A DNA stretch of 64,000 nucleotides from Syntrophales bacterium (GTDB lineage: Bacteria; Desulfobacterota; Syntrophia; Syntrophales; UBA2185), in contig JBKQQP010000053.1 of the NCBI GenBank assembly GCA_052144335.1, forward strand, positions 62,818 through 126,817. Direction: 5' to 3'. The position numbers and the translations under genes were made by a program. Positions 6,486 through 62,887 of the stretch are shown one piece after another. The notes beneath the pieces were generated by a model. That model saw nothing but the letters and a program-made list of their open reading frames with translations, was not told the DNA's origin and did no database searches. How positions within the stretch are numbered: the stretch's first letter is position 1; each line of letters begins with the position of its first letter.

Positions 6486-6951
6486 TCGGGAAACGATGAC
6501 ACGAATTCTAAATAGTGTTCCTCAGGAGCATCCCTTTCGCTTTATCGACGATATATTGGAACTGGATGATGAACACATTGTAGGCACTTACCGCTTTCGT
6601 GAGGATGAGTATTTTTACAAGGGACACTTCCCCGGCCAGCCGATCACCCCAGGTGTCATTCTCATCGAAGCCATGGCACAGACGGGGGTTGTCGCCTTCG
6701 GCCTTTATCTTCACATGAGGCAGACCCATACAACTGTGGAGGATGCAAAAAAGCTGACTACATTATTTACCCTTGCCGAAGGAGTGGAGTTCACGGGGGT
6801 CGTACATCCCGGTGAGCGAGTGATCGTTAAAGGTCACAAAGTCTATTTTCGCATGGGAAATCTGAAAATGAAGGTTTCCATGGAAAGAGAAAATGGAGAG
6901 ACGGTGAGTTCCGGCATACTTGCCGGGAGGGGAGTGCCTTCCCGGATTTAG
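6463..6951 (+). CDS. FabZ-like hotdog-fold 3-hydroxyacyl-ACP dehydratase
   Basis: 162 aa with HPFRFIDDILELD...YFYKGHFPGQPITPGVILIEAMAQTG, a FabZ-type His context. The start is uncertain between 6463 and the ATG at 6475. Either start overlaps the fabG stop at 6483-6485. Confidence 0.7.
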   Translation: MGGSMAADRETMTRILNSVPQEHPFRFIDDILELDDEHIVGTYRFREDEYFYKGHFPGQPITPGVILIEAMAQTGVVAFGLYLHMRQTHTTVEDAKKLTTLFTLAEGVEFTGVVHPGERVIVKGHKVYFRMGNLKMKVSMERENGETVSSGILAGRGVPSRI

Positions 6952-6983
6952 CGCTTAATGATTTCTATGGAGGTTTACTTTAG

Positions 6984-8276
6984 TTGAAAAGAAGGGTCGT
7001 CATAACCGGGATGGGAATAGCAGCCCCCAATGCCCACGGCTTGGTCAATTTTGAAGATGCCCTGCGGAAAGGCCTCTCCGGCATCCGGTTTTTTCCTGAA
7101 CTTAAGGAATTGAACTTTTCTTGCCAGATAGGCGCGGCCCCGCACGACTTTGACAATATCCGCAAGGGCTATTTTAATGAAGATACACTGATGTCGATGA
7201 ACGAAAATATCGGCTACGCAGCTGTTTCTGCCGTAGACGCATGGACCGACGCCGGTTTCAAGATGCCTGACATTCACGATGATACGGTGGACTGGGATAC
7301 AGGCGTAATTGTCGGCTCCGGAATCGGCGGCATGGATACAATTACAACCATTCTCGTGCCCATGGTCTCCCAAGGAAAAGTGCGCCGCATGGGAAGCCGT
7401 ATAGTGGAGCAGGTGATGAACAGCGGCACAAGCGCATGTATCGCGGGCCTCTTGGCCCTCGGGAATCAGGTGACTTCAAATTCGTCTGCCTGCAGCACGG
7501 GGAATGAGGCGATTGTTGAAGGGATGTGGAGAATACGGAATGGTCTTGCAAAGAGGGTCTTGGCCGGTGGCTCTGAAGGCCAATCCCCTTTTATCTGGGC
7601 CGGATTCGAGGCCATGCGCGTTATCTGCAAGAAGTTTAATGATTACCCGGAGGCTGCTTCACGGCCGATGAGCGCCACCGCATGTGGTTTTGTCCCCGGG
7701 TCGGGTGCTGGAATTCTGGTGCTTGAAGACCTGGAATCCGCGCTGGCACGTGGAGTAAGAATTTATGCTGAAGTTCTCGGAGGCGCTGTCAATTGCGGAG
7801 GGCATCGTATGGGCGGCTCCATAACCGCACCGAATCCCGAGGGTGTCAAACGATGCATCAAGGCCGCCATATCCGACGCATGTATTGTGCCGGCTGATAT
7901 AGACGCAATCAACGGCCACTTAACGGCAACCTTTGCCGATCCTTATGAAGTGAAGAATTGGTCGGCAGCCCTCGAGCGCGGCCCCGCCAATTTTCCCTAC
8001 ATCAATTCCACAAAATCTATGGTGGGGCATTGCTTAGGCGCAGCGGGCGCGATAGAGAGCGTTGCCGTCGTATTGCAATTATACAAGGGTTTCCTCCATC
8101 CTTCCGTTAATTGTGAGGATATACACCCCGATATCGCTGAATTTAAAGATAAGGTGCCACAGAAGTGCATGGATTATCCTGAATTAAATATGATCGCCAA
8201 AGCCGGTTTCGGCTTCGGCGATGTGAACAGCTGTCTCATCTTCAAGAGATGGAATAATAACCAAAGGAGCTATTAA
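6984..8276 (+). CDS. beta-ketoacyl-ACP synthase (KAS I/II family, divergent)
   Basis: 430 aa with a TTG start and GGAGG 10 nt upstream. The Cys-His-His contexts are NSSACSTGNEA, INGHLTATFADP (unusual compared with HGTST) and STKSMVGHCLGAAG. Confidence 0.85.
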   Translation: MKRRVVITGMGIAAPNAHGLVNFEDALRKGLSGIRFFPELKELNFSCQIGAAPHDFDNIRKGYFNEDTLMSMNENIGYAAVSAVDAWTDAGFKMPDIHDDTVDWDTGVIVGSGIGGMDTITTILVPMVSQGKVRRMGSRIVEQVMNSGTSACIAGLLALGNQVTSNSSACSTGNEAIVEGMWRIRNGLAKRVLAGGSEGQSPFIWAGFEAMRVICKKFNDYPEAASRPMSATACGFVPGSGAGILVLEDLESALARGVRIYAEVLGGAVNCGGHRMGGSITAPNPEGVKRCIKAAISDACIVPADIDAINGHLTATFADPYEVKNWSAALERGPANFPYINSTKSMVGHCLGAAGAIESVAVVLQLYKGFLHPSVNCEDIHPDIAEFKDKVPQKCMDYPELNMIAKAGFGFGDVNSCLIFKRWNNNQRSY

Positions 8277-41178: not shown

Positions 41179-43217
41179 GATTTAAAGACAAAAAAAGGAA
41201 ACCAAAACGCTCCCGCCTGGGCACAGTACTGTTGGTAGTCACACTATGCTTTGTCATTCTGACGATTATAGTAAGCAGTATCTTGTACTATGTCCTCCAA
41301 CAGGAATTGCCCAGTATTGCTGCCTTAAAGGACTACCGTCCCAGCATCGCCACGCGCGTGTACGCAGACAATAATGAACTAATCGATGAGTTTTTTATGG
41401 AAGATAGAAAAATCATTAGGTTGTCCGAAGTTCCAAAGGTGGTCATTCAGGCCTTTGTGGCTGCGGAAGATGCAAGATTTTATCAACATACTGGCTTCGA
41501 TTTGGTGAGTATGACAAGGGCTTTTTATAAAAATATCGAAGCCGGTCACATAGTTCAGGGGGGCAGCACCATAACGCAGCAGGTGGCTAAATCACTCTAT
41601 CTGTCTTCGGAAAAAAGCTACATGAGAAAAATCAAGGAGGCCATCCTGGCCTATAAGATTGACAGGTATCTTTCGAAAGACGAAATTATGAACTTATACC
41701 TAAACCACATATATTTGGGGCACGGCACTTACGGCATCGAGGCAGCATCACAAGGGTATTTTGGAAAAAGTGCCAGGCATCTGACCCTAGCGGAAGCCTC
41801 ACTCCTGGCCGGTCTTCCCAAGGCGCCCAGCAGCTATTCTCCTTTCTTCCATCTCGACCGCGCCCGCCAGAGACAGGCCTACGTACTTGAAAGGATGGTT
41901 GAAGATGAGTACATCACCACGGCAGAGAAAGAGCGAGCCCTTGCAGCGCCCATAATCCTCAAATCCATCAGGCCTAAAGAAAAGATTGCCCCTTATTTTG
42001 TGGAGAACATCCGGAAATACATTATGGAAAAATACGGGAGCGATGTACTTTACAGGGAAGGTCTTGAAGTCTATACGACCCTTAACATAGAAATGCAGAA
42101 AGCGGCACGGGACGCAGTGGAAAAGGGACTTCAAGAATTGGAGGAGCGGGAGAAGTATGAGAAAGGACTCGTTCAGGGTGCTCTTCTTTGCATGGAGGTG
42201 AAGACAGGCGCTATCACGGCTATGGTCGGAGGCAGGGATTTCAAGAAGAGTGAATTCAACCGCGCCACCCAGTCGCGAAGGCAGCCTGGATCGGCATTTA
42301 AGCCATTTATCTACACAGCCGCCTTCGACAAGGGAATGACGCCATCAACACGCATACTGGACGCTCCCATTGTCTTTGAAGATAAGTCATCTCCTGATGG
42401 TTTCTGGAAACCAAGAAACTTTGACGGAAAATTCAATGGGCCCACGACTCTTAGAAACGCCCTCGTGCAGTCGCGAAATATCATTACTATAAAGATCCTC
42501 CAGGAGATCGGCGTCGATTATGCCGCCTCATATGCCACGAATATGGGGATTACTTCTCCCCTCTCCAAGAATCTCTCCTTGGCTCTGGGGACGTCAGGCG
42601 TAACCCTTCAGGAAATGGTTAGGGGATATGGCGTCCTGGCAAATCAGGGTAAACGAGTCGTGCCTTTCTTCATCAAGAAGATCGTTGATCGAACGGGTCA
42701 TATCTTTGAAGAAGCCCAAGTAAAAAGTGAAGAGGTCATCGACCCCCGGATAGCGTTCATGACATCATATGTTATGCAGGATGTCGTGGAAAGCGGGACG
42801 GGGAGACGAGTTAAGAGCATCGGCAGGCCTGTTGCAGGTAAGACGGGAACGACAGATGACACGAGAGATGCCTGGTTCATAGGCTTTACACCGTCTCTGG
42901 TGGCAGGGGTATGGGTTGGGTTTGACCAGGAAACCTCTCTCGGTAGAGAAGAAGTGGGGGGCAGGGCAGCAGCGCCCATATGGCTCTATTTCATGGAAAA
43001 AGCCCTACAAAACAGGGCCAGGGAAGTTTTTCCCGTCCCGGACGGGATTGTCTTCATCAAGGTGGACCCTCACACAGGCATTCCCGCTACACGGTCGACC
43101 CAGGACGCCATATTCGAGAGTTTTCTTGAGGGTACAACAGGGACTCGTGCAGTACCCATAGAGATCAAGGAAACGCAGGATGAGATAGACAGGCGCGATA
43201 AGGACAATTCCCGTTAA
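41175..43217 (+). CDS. mrcA: class A penicillin-binding protein (PBP1A; glycosyltransferase + transpeptidase)
   Basis: 680 aa with GT51 motifs EDARFYQHTGFD and GGSTITQQVAK, and transpeptidase motifs SAFKPF, SRN and KTGTT. Confidence 0.9.
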   Translation: MRFKDKKRKPKRSRLGTVLLVVTLCFVILTIIVSSILYYVLQQELPSIAALKDYRPSIATRVYADNNELIDEFFMEDRKIIRLSEVPKVVIQAFVAAEDARFYQHTGFDLVSMTRAFYKNIEAGHIVQGGSTITQQVAKSLYLSSEKSYMRKIKEAILAYKIDRYLSKDEIMNLYLNHIYLGHGTYGIEAASQGYFGKSARHLTLAEASLLAGLPKAPSSYSPFFHLDRARQRQAYVLERMVEDEYITTAEKERALAAPIILKSIRPKEKIAPYFVENIRKYIMEKYGSDVLYREGLEVYTTLNIEMQKAARDAVEKGLQELEEREKYEKGLVQGALLCMEVKTGAITAMVGGRDFKKSEFNRATQSRRQPGSAFKPFIYTAAFDKGMTPSTRILDAPIVFEDKSSPDGFWKPRNFDGKFNGPTTLRNALVQSRNIITIKILQEIGVDYAASYATNMGITSPLSKNLSLALGTSGVTLQEMVRGYGVLANQGKRVVPFFIKKIVDRTGHIFEEAQVKSEEVIDPRIAFMTSYVMQDVVESGTGRRVKSIGRPVAGKTGTTDDTRDAWFIGFTPSLVAGVWVGFDQETSLGREEVGGRAAAPIWLYFMEKALQNRAREVFPVPDGIVFIKVDPHTGIPATRSTQDAIFESFLEGTTGTRAVPIEIKETQDEIDRRDKDNSR

Positions 43218-43296
43218 AGACAGTAACCCAAAAATTCCTTGACAAATCTGAATTCTTGTATAAAAGTACTGTGCATTAACGAGTAAAGGTAAGCAG

Positions 43297-43386
43297 ATGA
43301 CCTCTTACAGCCTGAGCATCAATCTCCCTATCGTAGCCGTAGTAGTAGTATCTGTACTTCGGGGGACCGCTGCTCGGTTTCTGTGA
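43297..43386 (+). CDS. Val-rich leader peptide of ilvBN-1 (attenuator)
   Basis: atg..tga encodes MTSYSLSINLPIVAVVVVSVLRGTAARFL (29 aa; 6 Val, including four consecutive GTA codons). It lies 20 nt upstream of a strong terminator and 127 nt upstream of ilvB. Confidence 0.6.
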   Translation: MTSYSLSINLPIVAVVVVSVLRGTAARFL

Positions 43387-43406
43387 TGGAATGACATAGA
43401 ACTTAG

Positions 43407-43439
43407 AGCCGCGGGCCCCGATGACCCGCGGCTTTTTTA
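43407..43439 (+). terminator. attenuator terminator upstream of ilvBN-1
   Basis: 9-bp GC-rich stem AGCCGCGGG (43407-43415) / CCCGCGGCT (43425-43433) followed by a T-run to 43438. Confidence 0.7.
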
Positions 43440-43512
43440 TGCCTTACAGGCCGCTGCACAGATGAACTGGCGGCTTTTCTATTTTCTAAACAGCAAGGAG
43501 CACGTAGCAAAT

Positions 43513-45186
43513 ATGGGAACCATTGGCGCAGAAATAGTTATACAAATCTTAAGGGAGGAGGGAGTCGATGTAGTCTTTGGATACCCGGGGGCGAACACCC
43601 TACCCCTTCATGACCGGTTGATAAACAGCCAGATCCGCCATTACCTCATGCGGCACGAACAGGGTGCAGCTCATGCGGCTGATGGCTACGCTCGCGCTAC
43701 GGGAAAGGTAGGCGTCTGCATCGCCACGTCCGGGCCCGGTGCTACCAACCTGGTGACAGGGATTGCCACGGCCTTTATGGACTCAACGCCCATGGTCGCC
43801 CTTACTGCACAGGTTAGCACGAGCCTCCTCGGGCATGACGCCTTCCAGGAGACGGACATCATCGGGATAACCTTGCCTATCACAAAACACAGTTACCAGG
43901 TGCATGATGTGAATAATCTCGGGGCAACGCTGAGGCAGGCATTTGAACTCGCCAAGACGGGCAGGCCAGGTCCGGTCTTAGTGGATATCCCCCGCGATGT
44001 TCTGTCGTCGAAATGCCCCCTCGCAGAAAAGAAAGCTACCACTGCGCTGAGGACGAACTACAAGACTGAAGAAGATCGTGAACAACTGGAGATGATCGCC
44101 AAGACATTGAATCAGAGTGAAAGGCCCATCCTCATTATCGGAGGAGGAGTCAAACTTAGTAATGCCTTTCGTCTGATACGCGAGCTGATCGAAAAGGCGA
44201 AGATCCCCTTCGTTACAACAATGATGGGCATTGGTTCCGTTGACTCCGTCAATGGCTACAACCTGGGGTTGATAGGAACGCACGGTAATGAACTTGCGAA
44301 CCGGATGGTACATCAGTGCGATTTTATCCTAGCTATAGGTACACGCTTCTCAGACCGCAGTACAGCACTTATTGAAGAATTCGCGCCCCTGGCAAAAATT
44401 GCCCAGATAGATATCGACCCTACTTCGATCGGAAAGAGCATCAAGATTAATCTACCTTATGTGGGGGATATTCGCGATGCGCTGACGGCCTTGCTGCCTC
44501 TGATAGATGCAAAGGAAAAGTCGGAGTGGCTTCAAAGAATACAGTCTGAGCGTGACGCCATCAACGGAAAAGTCGCGGACACGGGATGCGGACCGGCAGG
44601 AGATTTCATCCGGATGGTACAGAATGCCATGCCCGTCGAAACAACGGTGACTGCGGATGTGGGATTGAATCAGATATGGACAGTGCGCACATGGCAGGCA
44701 CGAAGCCCGCGCAGTCTCATCACCAGCGGCGGCATGGGTACAATGGGATTCAGCCTGCCTGCAGCCATCGGCGCTAAGGTCGGCACTCCGGAGAGGGCAG
44801 TCGTAGCTATCACAGGCGACGGAGGATTCTACATGAACATCCAGGAACTGGCCACTGTTAGCTACTACAATTTACCAATAAAGATCGTAGTTATCAATAA
44901 CGGCCATCTGGGGATGATCCGCCAGATTCAGGACCTTTTTTACAATGCCCGTTTTAACACCATTGATTTGGGGAGCAAGGTTGATTTTGTAACTGTTGCC
45001 CGGGGCTTCGGCATCCCGGGGAGCAGAATTGCCGTAGATAAAGACCCGAAAGCCGGCATTGAAGCTATGGTAAAGGCCGACGGCCCGTATCTTCTGGAAG
45101 CCATTGTTGATCCGGAAAACTATGTCTATCCCATCATACCGCCGGGATGTTCGAATATCGAAATGATGTACGATAGACTTGACTGA
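43513..45186 (+). CDS. ilvB: acetolactate synthase large subunit, copy 1
   Basis: MGTIGAEIVIQILREEGVDVVFGYPGA...RHEQGAAHAADGYARATGKVGVCIATSGPGATNLVTG...; ThDP motif GDGGFYMNIQELAT...NNG. The start at 43513 follows AAGGAG (43495-43500). The ORF-track start is 43462. Confidence 0.9.
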   Translation: MGTIGAEIVIQILREEGVDVVFGYPGANTLPLHDRLINSQIRHYLMRHEQGAAHAADGYARATGKVGVCIATSGPGATNLVTGIATAFMDSTPMVALTAQVSTSLLGHDAFQETDIIGITLPITKHSYQVHDVNNLGATLRQAFELAKTGRPGPVLVDIPRDVLSSKCPLAEKKATTALRTNYKTEEDREQLEMIAKTLNQSERPILIIGGGVKLSNAFRLIRELIEKAKIPFVTTMMGIGSVDSVNGYNLGLIGTHGNELANRMVHQCDFILAIGTRFSDRSTALIEEFAPLAKIAQIDIDPTSIGKSIKINLPYVGDIRDALTALLPLIDAKEKSEWLQRIQSERDAINGKVADTGCGPAGDFIRMVQNAMPVETTVTADVGLNQIWTVRTWQARSPRSLITSGGMGTMGFSLPAAIGAKVGTPERAVVAITGDGGFYMNIQELATVSYYNLPIKIVVINNGHLGMIRQIQDLFYNARFNTIDLGSKVDFVTVARGFGIPGSRIAVDKDPKAGIEAMVKADGPYLLEAIVDPENYVYPIIPPGCSNIEMMYDRLD

Positions 45187-45722: not shown

Positions 45723-45797
45723 AACAATTACAAAAATATTCTTGACAATACTATGGGAGGCTGTTAAGAAGGTCCCATAGTGAGGATTGATAACGAC

Positions 45798-45875
45798 ATG
45801 CACGCGCTTACCATCGCAAACATCATCATAATTATTATCGGCGTAATCATTCCCTTCCATAGGGAGGCTGGATGA
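45798..45875 (+). CDS. Ile-rich leader peptide of ilvBN-2 (attenuator)
   Basis: Encodes MHALTIANIIIIIIGVIIPFHREAG (25 aa; 9 Ile, with six consecutive). GAGGA lies 11 nt upstream and a terminator lies 35 nt downstream. Confidence 0.65.
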   Translation: MHALTIANIIIIIIGVIIPFHREAG

Positions 45876-45910
45876 TGGTTTGCGTTTAGCACATAGTTCG
45901 CAGTTAAAAG

Positions 45911-45943
45911 ACCGTTACCAGCCAAAGGTAACGGTTTTTTTTT
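45911..45943 (+). terminator. attenuator terminator upstream of ilvBN-2
   Basis: Stem ACCGTTACC (45911-45919) / GGTAACGGT (45927-45935) with a 7-nt loop, followed by a run of 9 T. Confidence 0.7.
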
Positions 45944-46047
45944 GGAGAAATATCCCTACAGGTATTAAGCAGGGAAGGATCCCATCCTCGACGCCATAAT
46001 GTCGCGGGGCGCTGACGGCGGGATTTTAAACAAGGGGGTAGAGAAAA

Positions 46048-47736
46048 GTGAAGTTAACAGGAGCGCAAGTCCTTTTTGAGGCCTTGCAAAAGGAGGATGT
46101 CGATACGATCTTTGGGTTTCCCGGTGGAGCCGTTCTCGATATATTTGATGAACTGTACAGAAGAAAGATTAAAAATATTTTAGTCCGGCATGAACAGGGT
46201 GCCATACACGCAGCCGACGGATACGCGAGGGTTTCTGGCAAGGTTGGCGTATGCCTAGTCACGTCCGGGCCGGGAGCTACAAACACGGTAACTGGCATTG
46301 CCAATGCTTTCATGGATTCCATCCCCGTCGTCGTACTTACAGGTCAGGTGGCAACCTCTTTGATTGGCGGCGACGCCTTTCAGGAAGTGGACATCACCGG
46401 TATTACAAGACCATGCACGAAGCATAATTTTCTGGTTAGGCGGATTGACGACCTGGGACGCATCGTCAGGGAGGCCTTTGACATCGCCCGCTCAGGACGC
46501 CCCGGTCCTGTTCTTATCGATATTCCCAAGGATATCACTAGATCCTTTATAGAAGATTCTGATGTATCCTGGACATCAAGCCTCCCTAATAATAACAAGA
46601 AGACTTCTATCGAAGATGCATGCATTAAAGCACTTGACATGATCAGGAAGGCAGAAAGACCGCTTATCATCTCAGGCGGCGGCGTACTGCTCGGCCGGGC
46701 CTGGGACGAGTTGAGAACATTTGTGAAAATGCTCAACGTGCCCATCACCTCGACCCTTATGGGGCTCGGGGCCTTCCCCGCATCCGATCCACATTGGCTC
46801 GGTATGCCGGGTATGCATGGCACGTATTACGCCAATATGGCAATCACTAATTGCGACCTTTTGATCGCCCTGGGCGTCCGTTTTGATGATCGGGTCACGT
46901 CGAAGCTTGACGCCTTTGCGCCCCATGCTAAGGTCCTTCACATCGATATTGACCCTGCGTCCATCGATAAATTTATAAAGACGCACCTGTCGATAGCAAG
47001 CGATTGCAAGCCCGTATTGCAACTACTCAATAAGTGGATTTCGGATAAGAGTTTTGCAATCACCGGGAAGCAAACAAAGGCATGGCTCGAGCAAATTCAG
47101 AAGTGGAAAGCGTTCGCACCCATGACGTACTGTCAGTCTGATAAAATCAAGCCTCAATACGTCGTGGAAACACTTTATCGCCTCACGGAAGGAAAAGCGA
47201 TCATCTCGACAGAAGTGGGGCAGAACCAGATGTGGGCGGCCCAGTTCTACCATTTCGATTACCCCAATTCATTCATTACATCGGGCGGCCTGGGAACAAT
47301 GGGTTATGGATTCCCGGCTGCCATCGGTGCGCAGGTTGCCCGCCCTGACAACGTTGTCGTAGATATTGCCGGAGATGGAAGCATCCAGATGAACATACAG
47401 GAGCTCGCAACGGCTGTTAATTATAGCCTTCCCGTTAAGATAGTCATCCTCAATAACGGCTTCTTAGGCATGGTTCGCCAATGGCAGGAACTCTTCTACG
47501 GGAAGCGTTATTCCCACAGCAATATATCCAATGTGCCTGACTTTGTGAAGCTGGCCGAAGCTTATGGCGCTGTTGGCCTACGGGCGACACGCCATGAAGA
47601 GGTGGAGGCCACCTTAAGGAAAGGCCTCGATACTGCAAAGACCGTCGTGATGGATTTCCATGTTGAACCTGAGGAGGGCGTATATCCCATGGTTTCACCG
47701 GGTGCGGCGATCTCAGATATGGTCTTGAGCAAATAG
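46048..47736 (+). CDS. ilvB: acetolactate synthase large subunit, copy 2
   Basis: 562 aa with a GTG start. Motifs include MKLTGAQVLFEALQKEDVDTIFGFPGGAVL...RHEQGAIHAADGYARVSGKVGVCLVTSGPGATNTVTG and GDGSIQMNIQELAT. Confidence 0.9.
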   Translation: MKLTGAQVLFEALQKEDVDTIFGFPGGAVLDIFDELYRRKIKNILVRHEQGAIHAADGYARVSGKVGVCLVTSGPGATNTVTGIANAFMDSIPVVVLTGQVATSLIGGDAFQEVDITGITRPCTKHNFLVRRIDDLGRIVREAFDIARSGRPGPVLIDIPKDITRSFIEDSDVSWTSSLPNNNKKTSIEDACIKALDMIRKAERPLIISGGGVLLGRAWDELRTFVKMLNVPITSTLMGLGAFPASDPHWLGMPGMHGTYYANMAITNCDLLIALGVRFDDRVTSKLDAFAPHAKVLHIDIDPASIDKFIKTHLSIASDCKPVLQLLNKWISDKSFAITGKQTKAWLEQIQKWKAFAPMTYCQSDKIKPQYVVETLYRLTEGKAIISTEVGQNQMWAAQFYHFDYPNSFITSGGLGTMGYGFPAAIGAQVARPDNVVVDIAGDGSIQMNIQELATAVNYSLPVKIVILNNGFLGMVRQWQELFYGKRYSHSNISNVPDFVKLAEAYGAVGLRATRHEEVEATLRKGLDTAKTVVMDFHVEPEEGVYPMVSPGAAISDMVLSK

Positions 47737-61762: not shown

Positions 61763-62887
61763 ATGAAATTTAATATACTAAGAGATTCTTTCTTGGAAGG
61801 TATCCAAAAGACGCTCAGCATCGTGGAGAAAAAAACAACCATGCCGATCCTCAATAATGTTCTAATCAGGGCGGAAAAAAATAAAATAACAATTGTGGCA
61901 ACCGACAGGGAGATAGGATTGGTTGCAGACTATGAAGCAGAAATCATAAGTAAAGGCGATGTTACTATTTCTGCAAGAAAACTCTATGAAATGATCAGAG
62001 AGATCGAGGGCGATACTGTTCAGTTTGAAGCAAACGAGAGCCACAGGGTAACACTGACATCTCAGAAAATAATCTATAAAATACCCGGCTTACCTGCAGA
62101 TGATTTTCCCAGCGTTGCTGATGGCCGCAGTGAATTGAATTTTTATAAGATCAAAGGATGCTTGATTGAAAGATTAATTCGTAAGACATCCTTCGCCATG
62201 TCGGCCGATGAAATGAGGAAGAATTTGAACGGTGTTTTTTTTGAAACTATAAACGACGGAGACAAGAATAAGCTACGCATGATCGCAACGGATGGTCATC
62301 GCCTGGCTATGGCTAATGTGGACACAGAAGGGACGGAGTTCTTAAAGATGGAAAAGGGAGTTATAATTCCCAGAAAAGGATTGGGTGAAATAAGAAGGCT
62401 CATCGAAAGTGCACCGGAGGATGTCTTCGTAGGGGTGCGTCAAGGAATGTGCGTCATCAAAACGGACAGCACCATGTTAAAGGTTAGCTTGGTAGATGCG
62501 GATTATCCGGACTATAAGCGGGTTATACCCACGGAGAAAGGGGTCCTCGTGCGATTTGATAAAGACACAATTCTGCATGCCTTAAGAAGGATGAGTGTCA
62601 TCTCAAGCGAAAGATACAGTGGTGTTATAATCAAATTAGAAAATGGCAGAATGGTGTTGGAATCGGCAAATCCGGATGTGGGAGAAGCCAAAGACGAACT
62701 TGAAGTAGACTATCACGACAGTGAGTTCTCTGTAGGTTATAACGTCAAATACTTGATTGATGCCATAGAGGTGATCGATGAGAAAAAGGTCATCTTTGAA
62801 ATAGGGGCGGGCATGAAGCCGGGCATTATAAAGCCGGCTGAGAACGATGATTACCTGTGTATTGTCATGCCGCTGAAGCTTCAATGA
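61763..62887 (+). CDS. dnaN: DNA polymerase III beta sliding clamp
   Basis: MKFNILRDSFLEGIQKTLSIVEKKTTMPILNNVLI... The ATG at 61763 lies 7 nt after AGGGAGGG. The ORF-track ATG at 61757 is too close to the SD. Confidence 0.95.
   Translation: MKFNILRDSFLEGIQKTLSIVEKKTTMPILNNVLIRAEKNKITIVATDREIGLVADYEAEIISKGDVTISARKLYEMIREIEGDTVQFEANESHRVTLTSQKIIYKIPGLPADDFPSVADGRSELNFYKIKGCLIERLIRKTSFAMSADEMRKNLNGVFFETINDGDKNKLRMIATDGHRLAMANVDTEGTEFLKMEKGVIIPRKGLGEIRRLIESAPEDVFVGVRQGMCVIKTDSTMLKVSLVDADYPDYKRVIPTEKGVLVRFDKDTILHALRRMSVISSERYSGVIIKLENGRMVLESANPDVGEAKDELEVDYHDSEFSVGYNVKYLIDAIEVIDEKKVIFEIGAGMKPGIIKPAENDDYLCIVMPLKLQ

Follow-up and report, generated by a model that had tools for sequence, protein, structure and literature searches.

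The leader in front of the acetolactate synthase genes ilvB1-ilvN1 of a Syntrophales bacterium was analysed in a window of 64,000 nucleotides, that is, the whole stretch of contig JBKQQP010000053.1 (GenBank assembly GCA_052144335.1) from position 62,818 to position 126,817, forward strand. This leader, which is located between a PBP1A gene and ilvB1, is very probably a classical ribosome-mediated (leader-peptide) transcription attenuator that controls ilvB1-ilvN1, as judged from comparative sequence analysis and folding. The parts of the attenuator exist, are conserved throughout the order Syntrophales, and fold as the mechanism requires. They consist of a short open reading frame (ORF) rich in valine codons, an intrinsic terminator (T1), an antiterminator, an anti-antiterminator, and a hairpin that spans the stop codon of the ORF. 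A second terminator-like hairpin (T2) was found between T1 and ilvB1. The coordinates are collected in the table, and the RNA strands are numbered there as regions 1 to 6 in the order of transcription, so that 1:2 is the anti-antiterminator, 2:3 the antiterminator, 3:4 T1, and 5:6 T2.

Relatives were collected by a scan of species-representative genomes with IlvB1. It gave 67 orthologue loci with 63-95% amino acid identity, and the 450 nt upstream of each ilvB1 orthologue were inspected by script. The labels of these loci were almost all Syntrophales, Syntrophaceae, Syntrophus or Deltaproteobacteria, and they included a complete genome, that of Syntrophus buswellii DM-2 (L042). The next-closest IlvB1 homologues had 39-44% identity and came from other phyla. 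The leader ORF, T1, and T2 were present upstream of ilvB1 in about 60 Syntrophales genomes, which was essentially every Syntrophales locus, and the same upstream scan found the arrangement in none of the distant homologues (39-44% identity). Five parts were kept in about 60 Syntrophales ilvB1 loci, namely the TTGACA promoter, the Shine-Dalgarno motif with the ORF, T1, the antiterminator segment, and the stop-codon hairpin. One further locus (L016, CAZVYK010000005.1), labelled 'uncultured Caldisericales', carried a full Syntrophales-type leader with T1, T2, and ilvB1N1-ilvB2N2 at 77-81% identity. This contig is probably mis-binned or mislabelled.

The leader ORF was open in 58/58 aligned relatives despite indels, with a length of 20-33 codons. 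The ATG column was conserved in alignment A1, and AAGG/GGAG-like motifs were conserved there at the same spacing as in the window. The composition across the family was 22% Val, 17% Leu, and 4.5% Ile. GTA made up 254 of the 354 Val codons (72%) over the 58 leaders and all six in the window leader, whereas among 33 window genes it was the rarest Val codon (17%). When the window was read in six frames, at least six Val within eight residues occurred only at this place, and GTAGTAGTAGTA likewise occurred only here. The peptide varied between clades, with ..IVAVVVVSVLRGTAARFL in the clade of the window, ..SLLLVLGVVVLVRTGAAARRL in a larger clade, and MLKNILLILGIITVVIVRRGTAARFL in Syntrophus proper. 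The residues sensed across the family would be Val and Leu, and Ile would matter only in the Syntrophus genus clade. In five loci of this genus (L027, L039, L042, L043, L058), the Ile/Leu/Val-rich leader (MLKNILLILGIITVVIVRRGTAARFL) was located 220-330 nt upstream of ilvB1, a much greater distance than in the other clades. Four representative leaders gave no Pfam or NCBIfam family at E ≤ 10, although peptides that are very short and of low complexity are hard to detect with hidden Markov models.

T1 was formed by AGCCGCGGG (43407-43415) pairing with CCCGCGGCU (43425-43433), together with a G-U pair (43406:43434) and a loop of 9 nt. T1 alone folded with −20.5 kcal/mol (z = −4.1), and 0/200 shuffles were as good. 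Counting both strands, the window contained only 6 strong terminator-like hairpins (dG ≤ −12, at least T5), T1 among them. T1 was present in all Syntrophales loci parsed. In the alignment, 87% of the cells in its columns were paired, and the inner pairs showed compensatory changes.

The antiterminator was found to be longer than a first inspection would suggest. CGGGGGACCGC (43360-43370) was complementary to GCGGGCCCCG (43411-43420), and the pairing was extended by GCUC (43372-43375) with GAGC (43406-43409). The complete 2:3 helix therefore comprised CGGGG-GA-CCGC-U-GCUC (43360-43375) and GAGC-C-GCGG-G-CCCCG (43406-43420), with 13 bp in three blocks. Region 2 encodes the conserved peptide tail RGTAAR, and the regulatory codons were located 4-27 nt before it. 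When about 340 upstream 20-nt windows were compared at each locus, the T1 5' arm formed its best duplex with the region-2 position in 63/63 loci. The duplex of the best partner had a median of −24.3 kcal/mol, versus −7.3 kcal/mol for the median window, and the segment was located 41-54 nt upstream of the T1 5' arm. The RNAalifold consensus on the 60-sequence alignment A1 also returned the 2:3 helix. When this helix was specified by hand, 89% of the cells were paired, and compensatory changes were observed at 142:178 (CG to UA) and 134:187. A chain of covariation linked columns 134/187/206, where C-G-C was changed to U-A-U. The competing 1:2 helix paired 43314-43329 with 43361-43376 in the minimum free energy (MFE) structure of the window sequence when no ribosome was imposed.

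The stop-codon hairpin was located between the two antiterminator strands and formed the apical part of a long antiterminator hairpin. Its sequence changed between clades while the pairing was kept, as in GUUUCUGUG/CAUAGAAAC, CGUCUUU/AAAGACG, GCGUCUUU/AAGGAUGC, and CCAUU/AAUGG. The mean z was −2.4, and z was below −1.64 in 44/61 loci. These values were taken from folds of each sequence because the MAFFT columns were out of register between clades.

An earlier note on this DNA had proposed that the region has the architecture of enterobacterial ilv attenuation, and all of the corresponding parts were found (Shine-Dalgarno motif and ORF, pathway codons, terminator, 2:3 and 1:2 helices). The 29-codon ORF with its four consecutive GTA codons was present as the note described it, and so was the 9-bp GC stem with a T-run, to which one G-U pair is to be added, the run being T6 (43433-43438). 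The conservation of the Val-rich ORF that it proposed to check was seen in the relatives. The TTGACA that it pointed to was also present and, as described below, kept at a constant spacing to the leader ATG. Its placement of the ilvB start at 43513 agreed with the TIGR00118 match and with the tblastn matches of the relatives. However, its description of the anatomy was incomplete. The pairing given for the candidate antiterminator was present but short of the 13 bp and of the hairpin that caps them over the stop codon. The anti-antiterminator (43314-43329 with 43361-43376), T2 (43448-43485), and the Ile-rich leader with its terminator before ilvB2 (described below) had been missed.

Folding was performed with and without a ribosome mask, as the earlier note had suggested, and the expected switch was obtained: T1 without a mask, the antiterminator with the ribosome at the early Val codons, and T1 with the ribosome at the stop codon. 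Without a ribosome, the 1:2 helix together with T1 was the MFE structure of the window leader, at −47.3 kcal/mol. When the RNA was free from 43354, the MFE structure was the antiterminator with the stop-codon hairpin at −33.1 kcal/mol, and T1 with the stop-codon hairpin reached only −23.4 kcal/mol. The same antiterminator structure was obtained at −32.6 kcal/mol with the RNA free from 43358. T1 was formed when the RNA was free only from 43364 or later. Over 61 loci, T1 was formed in 51/61 without a mask, the antiterminator in 41/61 with region 2 free, and T1 in 61/61 with the ribosome at the stop codon. The fold of the whole region (43270-43445) was unremarkable, with z = −0.95, and only sub-elements were significant. 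This was expected because the RNA has competing structures. A fold extended through T2 (43354-43480) was set aside, since at equilibrium it gave long-range pairings that were uninformative on co-transcriptional behaviour.

For the stall, the co-transcriptional timing, and the response in vivo, we infer the following course. The A-tract/TTGACA promoter would start transcription about 25 nt before the leader ATG, and a ribosome would translate the 29-codon leader. When charged Val-tRNA (and Leu-tRNA) is scarce, the ribosome would stall on the GTA run (43333-43350), so that region 1 is covered and region 2 is free. Free region 2, with the stop-codon hairpin as its cap, would pair with region 3 before region 4 is made. 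T1 would then be blocked, and RNA polymerase would continue into ilvB1. When charging is good, the ribosome would reach the UGA at 43384 and cover the 3' part of region 2, T1 would form, and transcription would stop at about 43438. Without translation, regions 1 and 2 would pair, and T1 would form again. As is known from toeprints, the edge of a ribosome footprint is located about 15 nt 3' of the P-site. With this value, a stall with any of V13-V17 in the A site is predicted to leave region 2 free. The comparative and thermodynamic evidence strongly supports the core of the earlier proposal that charging of Val (and Ile/Leu) tRNA controls read-through, with Val and Leu as the likely main signals.

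The promoter was conserved together with the leader. In 55/56 related loci, the A-tract and TTGACA preceded the leader ATG by 54-65 nt. TATA-like hexamers were found 14-17 nt after TTGACA in the relatives, and the −10 element was less clear than the −35 element. A consensus promoter/terminator scan listed neither the leader promoter nor T1. The promoter was unlisted because of its 14-nt spacer, and T1 was unlisted because the simple terminator scan limited the loop to 8 nt, versus 9 nt in T1. Therefore, folding and comparative conservation were used.

This conserved promoter bears on a different explanation, in which the tandem terminators T1 and T2 are ordinary and unregulated and serve to end the PBP1A transcript or to insulate ilvB1, and the ORF is a chance frame or an unrelated hydrophobic micro-protein. 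Such an arrangement would account for the absence of a terminator of its own between the end of PBP1A at 43217 and the leader, for the hydrophobic leader peptide, as in many small membrane proteins, and for the resemblance of T2 to a bidirectional terminator (A-tract, stem, U-tract). However, the promoter lies between PBP1A and the leader, and ilvB1 would be silent if constitutive terminators stood 30-75 nt ahead of its start codon. Furthermore, the conserved peptide tail is the very RNA strand that pairs best with the T1 5' arm, and the Val codons favour the rare GTA. The leader, T1, and T2 remained with ilvB1 even in loci whose upstream 4 kb contained neither tatC nor PBP1A. Because the element was retained with ilvB1 where the upstream genes differ, it belongs to ilvB1 and is not a tail of the gene before it. 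We consider unregulated tandem terminators very improbable.

A riboswitch that binds a ligand or tRNA (T-box-like, or a motif related to branched-chain amino acids (BCAA)) with an incidental ORF was also weighed. Nucleotides upstream of the terminator are highly conserved, and T-boxes control ilv-leu genes in Firmicutes, as cited in PMC5794164. However, Rfam gave 0 matches over the whole window at the gathering threshold (leader and attenuator families, T-box included), and 43100-43600 gave only chance-level matches at E ≤ 10 (E = 0.21, 0.47). The best local match, ncS54, was rejected, as it scored 17.6 bits versus a 43-bit cutoff (E = 0.21) and rested on terminator shape only. Promoter and T1 are about 160 nt apart, and nearly all of this stretch is taken by the ORF, whose integrity, Shine-Dalgarno motif, and start codon were conserved through indels. 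A riboswitch at this position is therefore extremely improbable.

Several results weigh against the attenuator as described. Most paired columns were invariant, so that strict covariation for T1, the antiterminator, and the 4:5 helix described below was thin, and conservation alone is no proof of pairing. The invariance fits strands with two partners each, yet it weakens the covariation statistics. With region 2 free, the antiterminator was not the equilibrium MFE structure in 20/61 loci. In the window, it won only with the ribosome edge at or before about 43358 (stalls V13-V17), and in this model region 2 is probably not freed by stalls at V18 or V20, which would give T1. The −10 element was poor. 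In addition, according to PMC1262725, regulation of Streptomyces (S. coelicolor) ilvB was unaffected by mutation of candidate regulatory codons in its leader, and because of this, leader-like anatomy is no proof of classical attenuation.

The Streptomyces result and the 20 loci without an equilibrium antiterminator also favour another view, in which the leader ORF regulates without sensing of tRNA charging through terminator choice. It would act as an upstream ORF (uORF) on translation or mRNA stability, or a protein or Rho would act on the conserved RNA. Such regulation has been argued for some actinobacterial ilvB leaders, and the Corynebacterium ilvB element has been described as a conserved uORF motif (PMC10272879). 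However, the full four-strand geometry (1:2, 2:3, 3:4) was conserved here, with the regulatory codons at the distance from region 2 given above. T1 is a canonical intrinsic terminator with U6, and the ilvB1 Shine-Dalgarno motif was outside all helices. We regard regulation of this kind as improbable, and ribosome-mediated attenuation remained the preferred reading.

T2 was found 12-20 nt after the T1 U-tract and was followed by U4-U7, mostly U6-7, in nearly all loci. Its outer stem GCCGC/GCGGC was almost invariant and the same as that of T1, with 97.7% of the cells paired (60 loci), and the inner stem varied. The hairpin energies ranged from −11 to −23 kcal/mol across loci, and the distance from T2 to the ilvB1 start codon was 27-40 nt in most of them. 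T2 is located between the only conserved promoter and ilvB1. Therefore, expression of ilvB1 would require a bypass of T2. Two loci were atypical. In L053, a metagenome-assembled genome of S. aciditrophicus, T1 and T2 were 378 nt upstream of ilvB1, and a leader start was not found in the aligned column. In L052, T1 was present and T2 was not recognisable. A small ORF after T1 (ATG 43440, MPYRPLHR) was considered as a control of T2 and rejected, as it had no Shine-Dalgarno motif and no BCAA codons and was conserved only in the closest relatives.

A bypass could be explained by a two-terminator relay, in which one stall decision is passed along the helices 1:2 / 2:3 / 3:4 / 4:5 / 5:6. The 2:3 helix would leave region 4 and its U-tract free to bind the A-tract and region 5 (4:5), which would block T2. 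When T1 is formed, T2 would also form and catch read-through. Complementarity was seen between CCGCGGCUUUU (T1 3' arm and U-tract) and AAAAGCCGCGG (A-tract and T2 5' arm). The RNAalifold consensus held 4:5 together with 2:3, with 86.6% of the cells paired in 4:5. In MFE folds of the segment from region 4 to region 6, with region 3 taken as sequestered, region 5 paired with region 4 and not with region 6 in about 46/63 loci. However, in the window itself 4:5 (−9.9) was weaker than T2 (−11.3), and in its clade T2 (−11.3 to −14) was at least as stable as 4:5, with a weaker U-tract after T2. Neighbouring terminators that share GCCGC/GCGGC stems also show 4:5 complementarity automatically. Position 239 gave a mixed result. 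G239 paired with C207 and mismatched in T2 in about 22 loci, and A239 paired in T2 and mismatched in 4:5 in about 14. We propose the relay tentatively, with its chances somewhat below even. If it operates, both terminators would form in the repressed state, and the overall leak would be the product of the two, so that the off state is tighter without a cost to induction. The near-invariant GCCGC/GCGGC stems throughout the order would then follow from two partners for each strand. Such a relay would offer a simple, natural means of sharpening an attenuator and could be reused in synthetic circuits. For tandem terminators in leader-peptide attenuators, no paper was found in the searchable literature, the coverage of which is incomplete.

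A second leader was found in the ilvN1-ilvB2 spacer. It is Ile-rich, with its own promoter, terminator, and candidate antiterminator, and the element as a whole (45742-45944) was kept in about 26/33 related loci with ilvB2 after ilvN1. With an Ile-rich leader before ilvB2, the two acetolactate synthase isozymes seem to answer to different amino acid signals, one to Val/Leu and the other to Ile. This wiring parallels E. coli, but because there is no sequence homology, it seems to have arisen independently. The Ile leader was absent in the Syntrophus-genus loci, where the ilvN1-ilvB2 spacer was only about 90 nt. One multivalent attenuator may therefore serve both acetohydroxyacid synthase (AHAS) copies in that genus. 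The E. coli ilvGMEDA leader (ilvL) is a multivalent Ile/Val/Leu attenuator, and E. coli likewise has more than one leader for one BCAA pathway, with differing amino acid emphasis. However, the attenuators of the window are 2.5 kb apart in one cluster, and each stands before its own AHAS isozyme. A near-identical promoter-like string, AAAAAT(T/A)(C/T)CTTGACAA, preceded both leaders (43229-43244 and 45732-45747), which suggests that they share a promoter type or an UP-like element. In L017, the ilvB2 match (6638-8115) consisted of three pieces in different frames, which may reflect a frameshifted pseudogene or a faulty assembly.

Table. Features of the ilvB1 leader and its surroundings (window positions)
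Feature	Position	Strand	Description	Basis or remark
Gene order		+	tatB-tatC-PBP1A-[leader]-ilvB1-ilvN1-ilvB2-ilvN2-ilvC-ilvD	NCBIfam scans
PBP1A (mrcA-like)	end at 43217			upstream neighbour of leader
−35 region	43229-43244	+	A-rich tract CAAAAATTCC, then TTGACA (43239-43244)	sequence; kept in 55/56 loci
Candidate −10	43259-43264	+	TATAAA, 14-nt spacer	weak, uncertain assignment
Leader Shine-Dalgarno-like motif	43285-43289	+	AAAGG, 7 nt before leader ATG	sequence
Leader ORF	43297-43386	+	29 codons + TGA; peptide MTSYSLSINLPIVAVVVVSVLRGTAARFL	ATG 43297, TGA 43384-43386
Region 1 (anti-antiterminator strand)	43314-43329	+	GAGCA..CUCCCU	in MFE of 43270-43445 and 43297-43434
Regulatory codon block	43333-43356	+	GTA GCC GTA GTA GTA GTA TCT GTA	six Val, all GTA; GTA x4 at 43339-43350
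Region 2 (antiterminator 5' strand)	43360-43375	+	CGGGG-GA-CCGC-U-GCUC	duplex scan, RNAalifold
Stop-codon hairpin	43377-43402	+	GUUUCUGUG / CAUAGAAC; leader UGA (43384-43386) in 5' arm	per-sequence folds
T1	43406-43438	+	region 3 (43406-43420), region 4 (43425-43434), U6 (43433-43438)	fold, conservation
Candidate 4:5 helix	43428-43454	+	GCGGCUU (43428-43434; T1 3' arm + first U) with AGGCCGC (43448-43454)	RNAalifold
T2	43448-43485	+	regions 5 (43448-43454) and 6 (43470-43476), inner CAG/CUG pairing, then UUUUCUAUUUU	alignment, folds
ilvB1 Shine-Dalgarno and start	43495-43515	+	AAGGAG 43495-43500; ATG 43513-43515	sequence; relatives' tblastn matches
ilvB1	43513-45186	+		NCBIfam TIGR00118, E = 8e-199
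Second promoter	45742-45747	+	A-tract/TTGACA of second attenuator	ilvN1-ilvB2 spacer
Second leader ORF	45798-45875	+	Ile-rich, MHALTIANIIIIIIGVIIPFHREAG	ilvN1-ilvB2 spacer
Second candidate antiterminator	45866-45880 with 45910-45923	+		ilvN1-ilvB2 spacer
Second leader terminator	45911-45944	+	ACCGTTACC (45911-45919) / GGTAACGGT (45927-45935) + T9	ilvN1-ilvB2 spacer
ilvB2	46048-47736	+	GTG start 46048	NCBIfam scan

The start of ilvB1 was assigned to 43513 since the tblastn matches in the relatives began at residue 1. The spacer from AAGGAG to this ATG was 12 nt, which is rather long. The in-frame ATG at 43462, given as the start in the program-made ORF list, was rejected, as it is inside the T2 hairpin and the matches of the relatives start at 43513.

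Comparison with known systems showed the closest parallel in E. coli ivbL-ilvBN, the AHAS I leader ('ilvBN operon leader peptide'). In both, a short ORF is located directly upstream of ilvB (32 codons in E. coli ivbL, MTTSMLNAKLLPTAPSAAVVVVRVVVVVGNAP, MG1655 record, versus 29 in the window), with Val runs and Leu codons, a GC-rich intrinsic terminator, and a short spacer to ilvB. In E. coli, Val/Leu charging sets read-through, which is the logic proposed here. However, the leader sequences are dissimilar, and the Val codons are GTG/GTC in E. coli and all rare GTA in the window. E. coli has one terminator, whereas a second conserved terminator-like hairpin follows T1 here, and the Syntrophales element has the covarying hairpin that spans the stop codon. 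The resemblance to enterobacterial IvbL/IlvL is functional and not homologous.

Similar leaders are known from other phyla. The Corynebacterium glutamicum ilvBNC leader (three-hairpin model) and actinobacterial ilvB leaders share a BCAA-rich leader peptide upstream of ilvB and terminator, antiterminator, and anti-antiterminator hairpins (abstract of PMC11857589; PMC1262725). They belong to another phylum and are unrelated in sequence, and no second terminator was found in the abstract of PMC11857589 or by term searches in PMC1262725. The Staphylococcus aureus ilvD leader encodes a 26-aa Ile/Leu-rich peptide with a Shine-Dalgarno motif, a terminator, and an alternative antiterminator, and this attenuator is backed by suppressor mutations (PMC5794164). 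In contrast to the window, where the antiterminator pairs with the 5' strand of the T1 stem in the classical trp-type geometry, the S. aureus antiterminator sequesters the poly-U tail and leaves the stem intact (PMC5794164).

The earlier note had also held that leader-peptide attenuation of ilv genes is little documented outside Gammaproteobacteria. This premise of novelty fails because such attenuation is documented in Actinobacteria and in S. aureus. For ilvB, it was predicted or demonstrated in Corynebacterium, Mycobacterium, and Streptomyces (PMC1262725, PMC10272879, and PMC11857589), and for ilvD it was reported in S. aureus (PMC5794164). Proteobacteria at large were covered by Vitreschak 2004, as cited in PMC1262725. 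On ilv leaders of Syntrophales or other deltaproteobacteria, no paper was found in the searchable literature (coverage incomplete), and no described amino acid attenuator was found there for the Syntrophales lineage.

These results have consequences for annotation. The small ORF is to be read as a leader peptide and not as a hypothetical protein, the start of ilvB1 is 43513 and not 43462, and two conserved terminators are located inside the operon leader. Two additions to the classical design are uncommon, the stop-codon hairpin that caps the antiterminator and the conserved second terminator, which a relay may control. The switch is of a known kind, and existing understanding is not overturned. 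The finding describes classical attenuation, order-wide and cleanly conserved, in Syntrophales (Thermodesulfobacteriota), an under-studied order.

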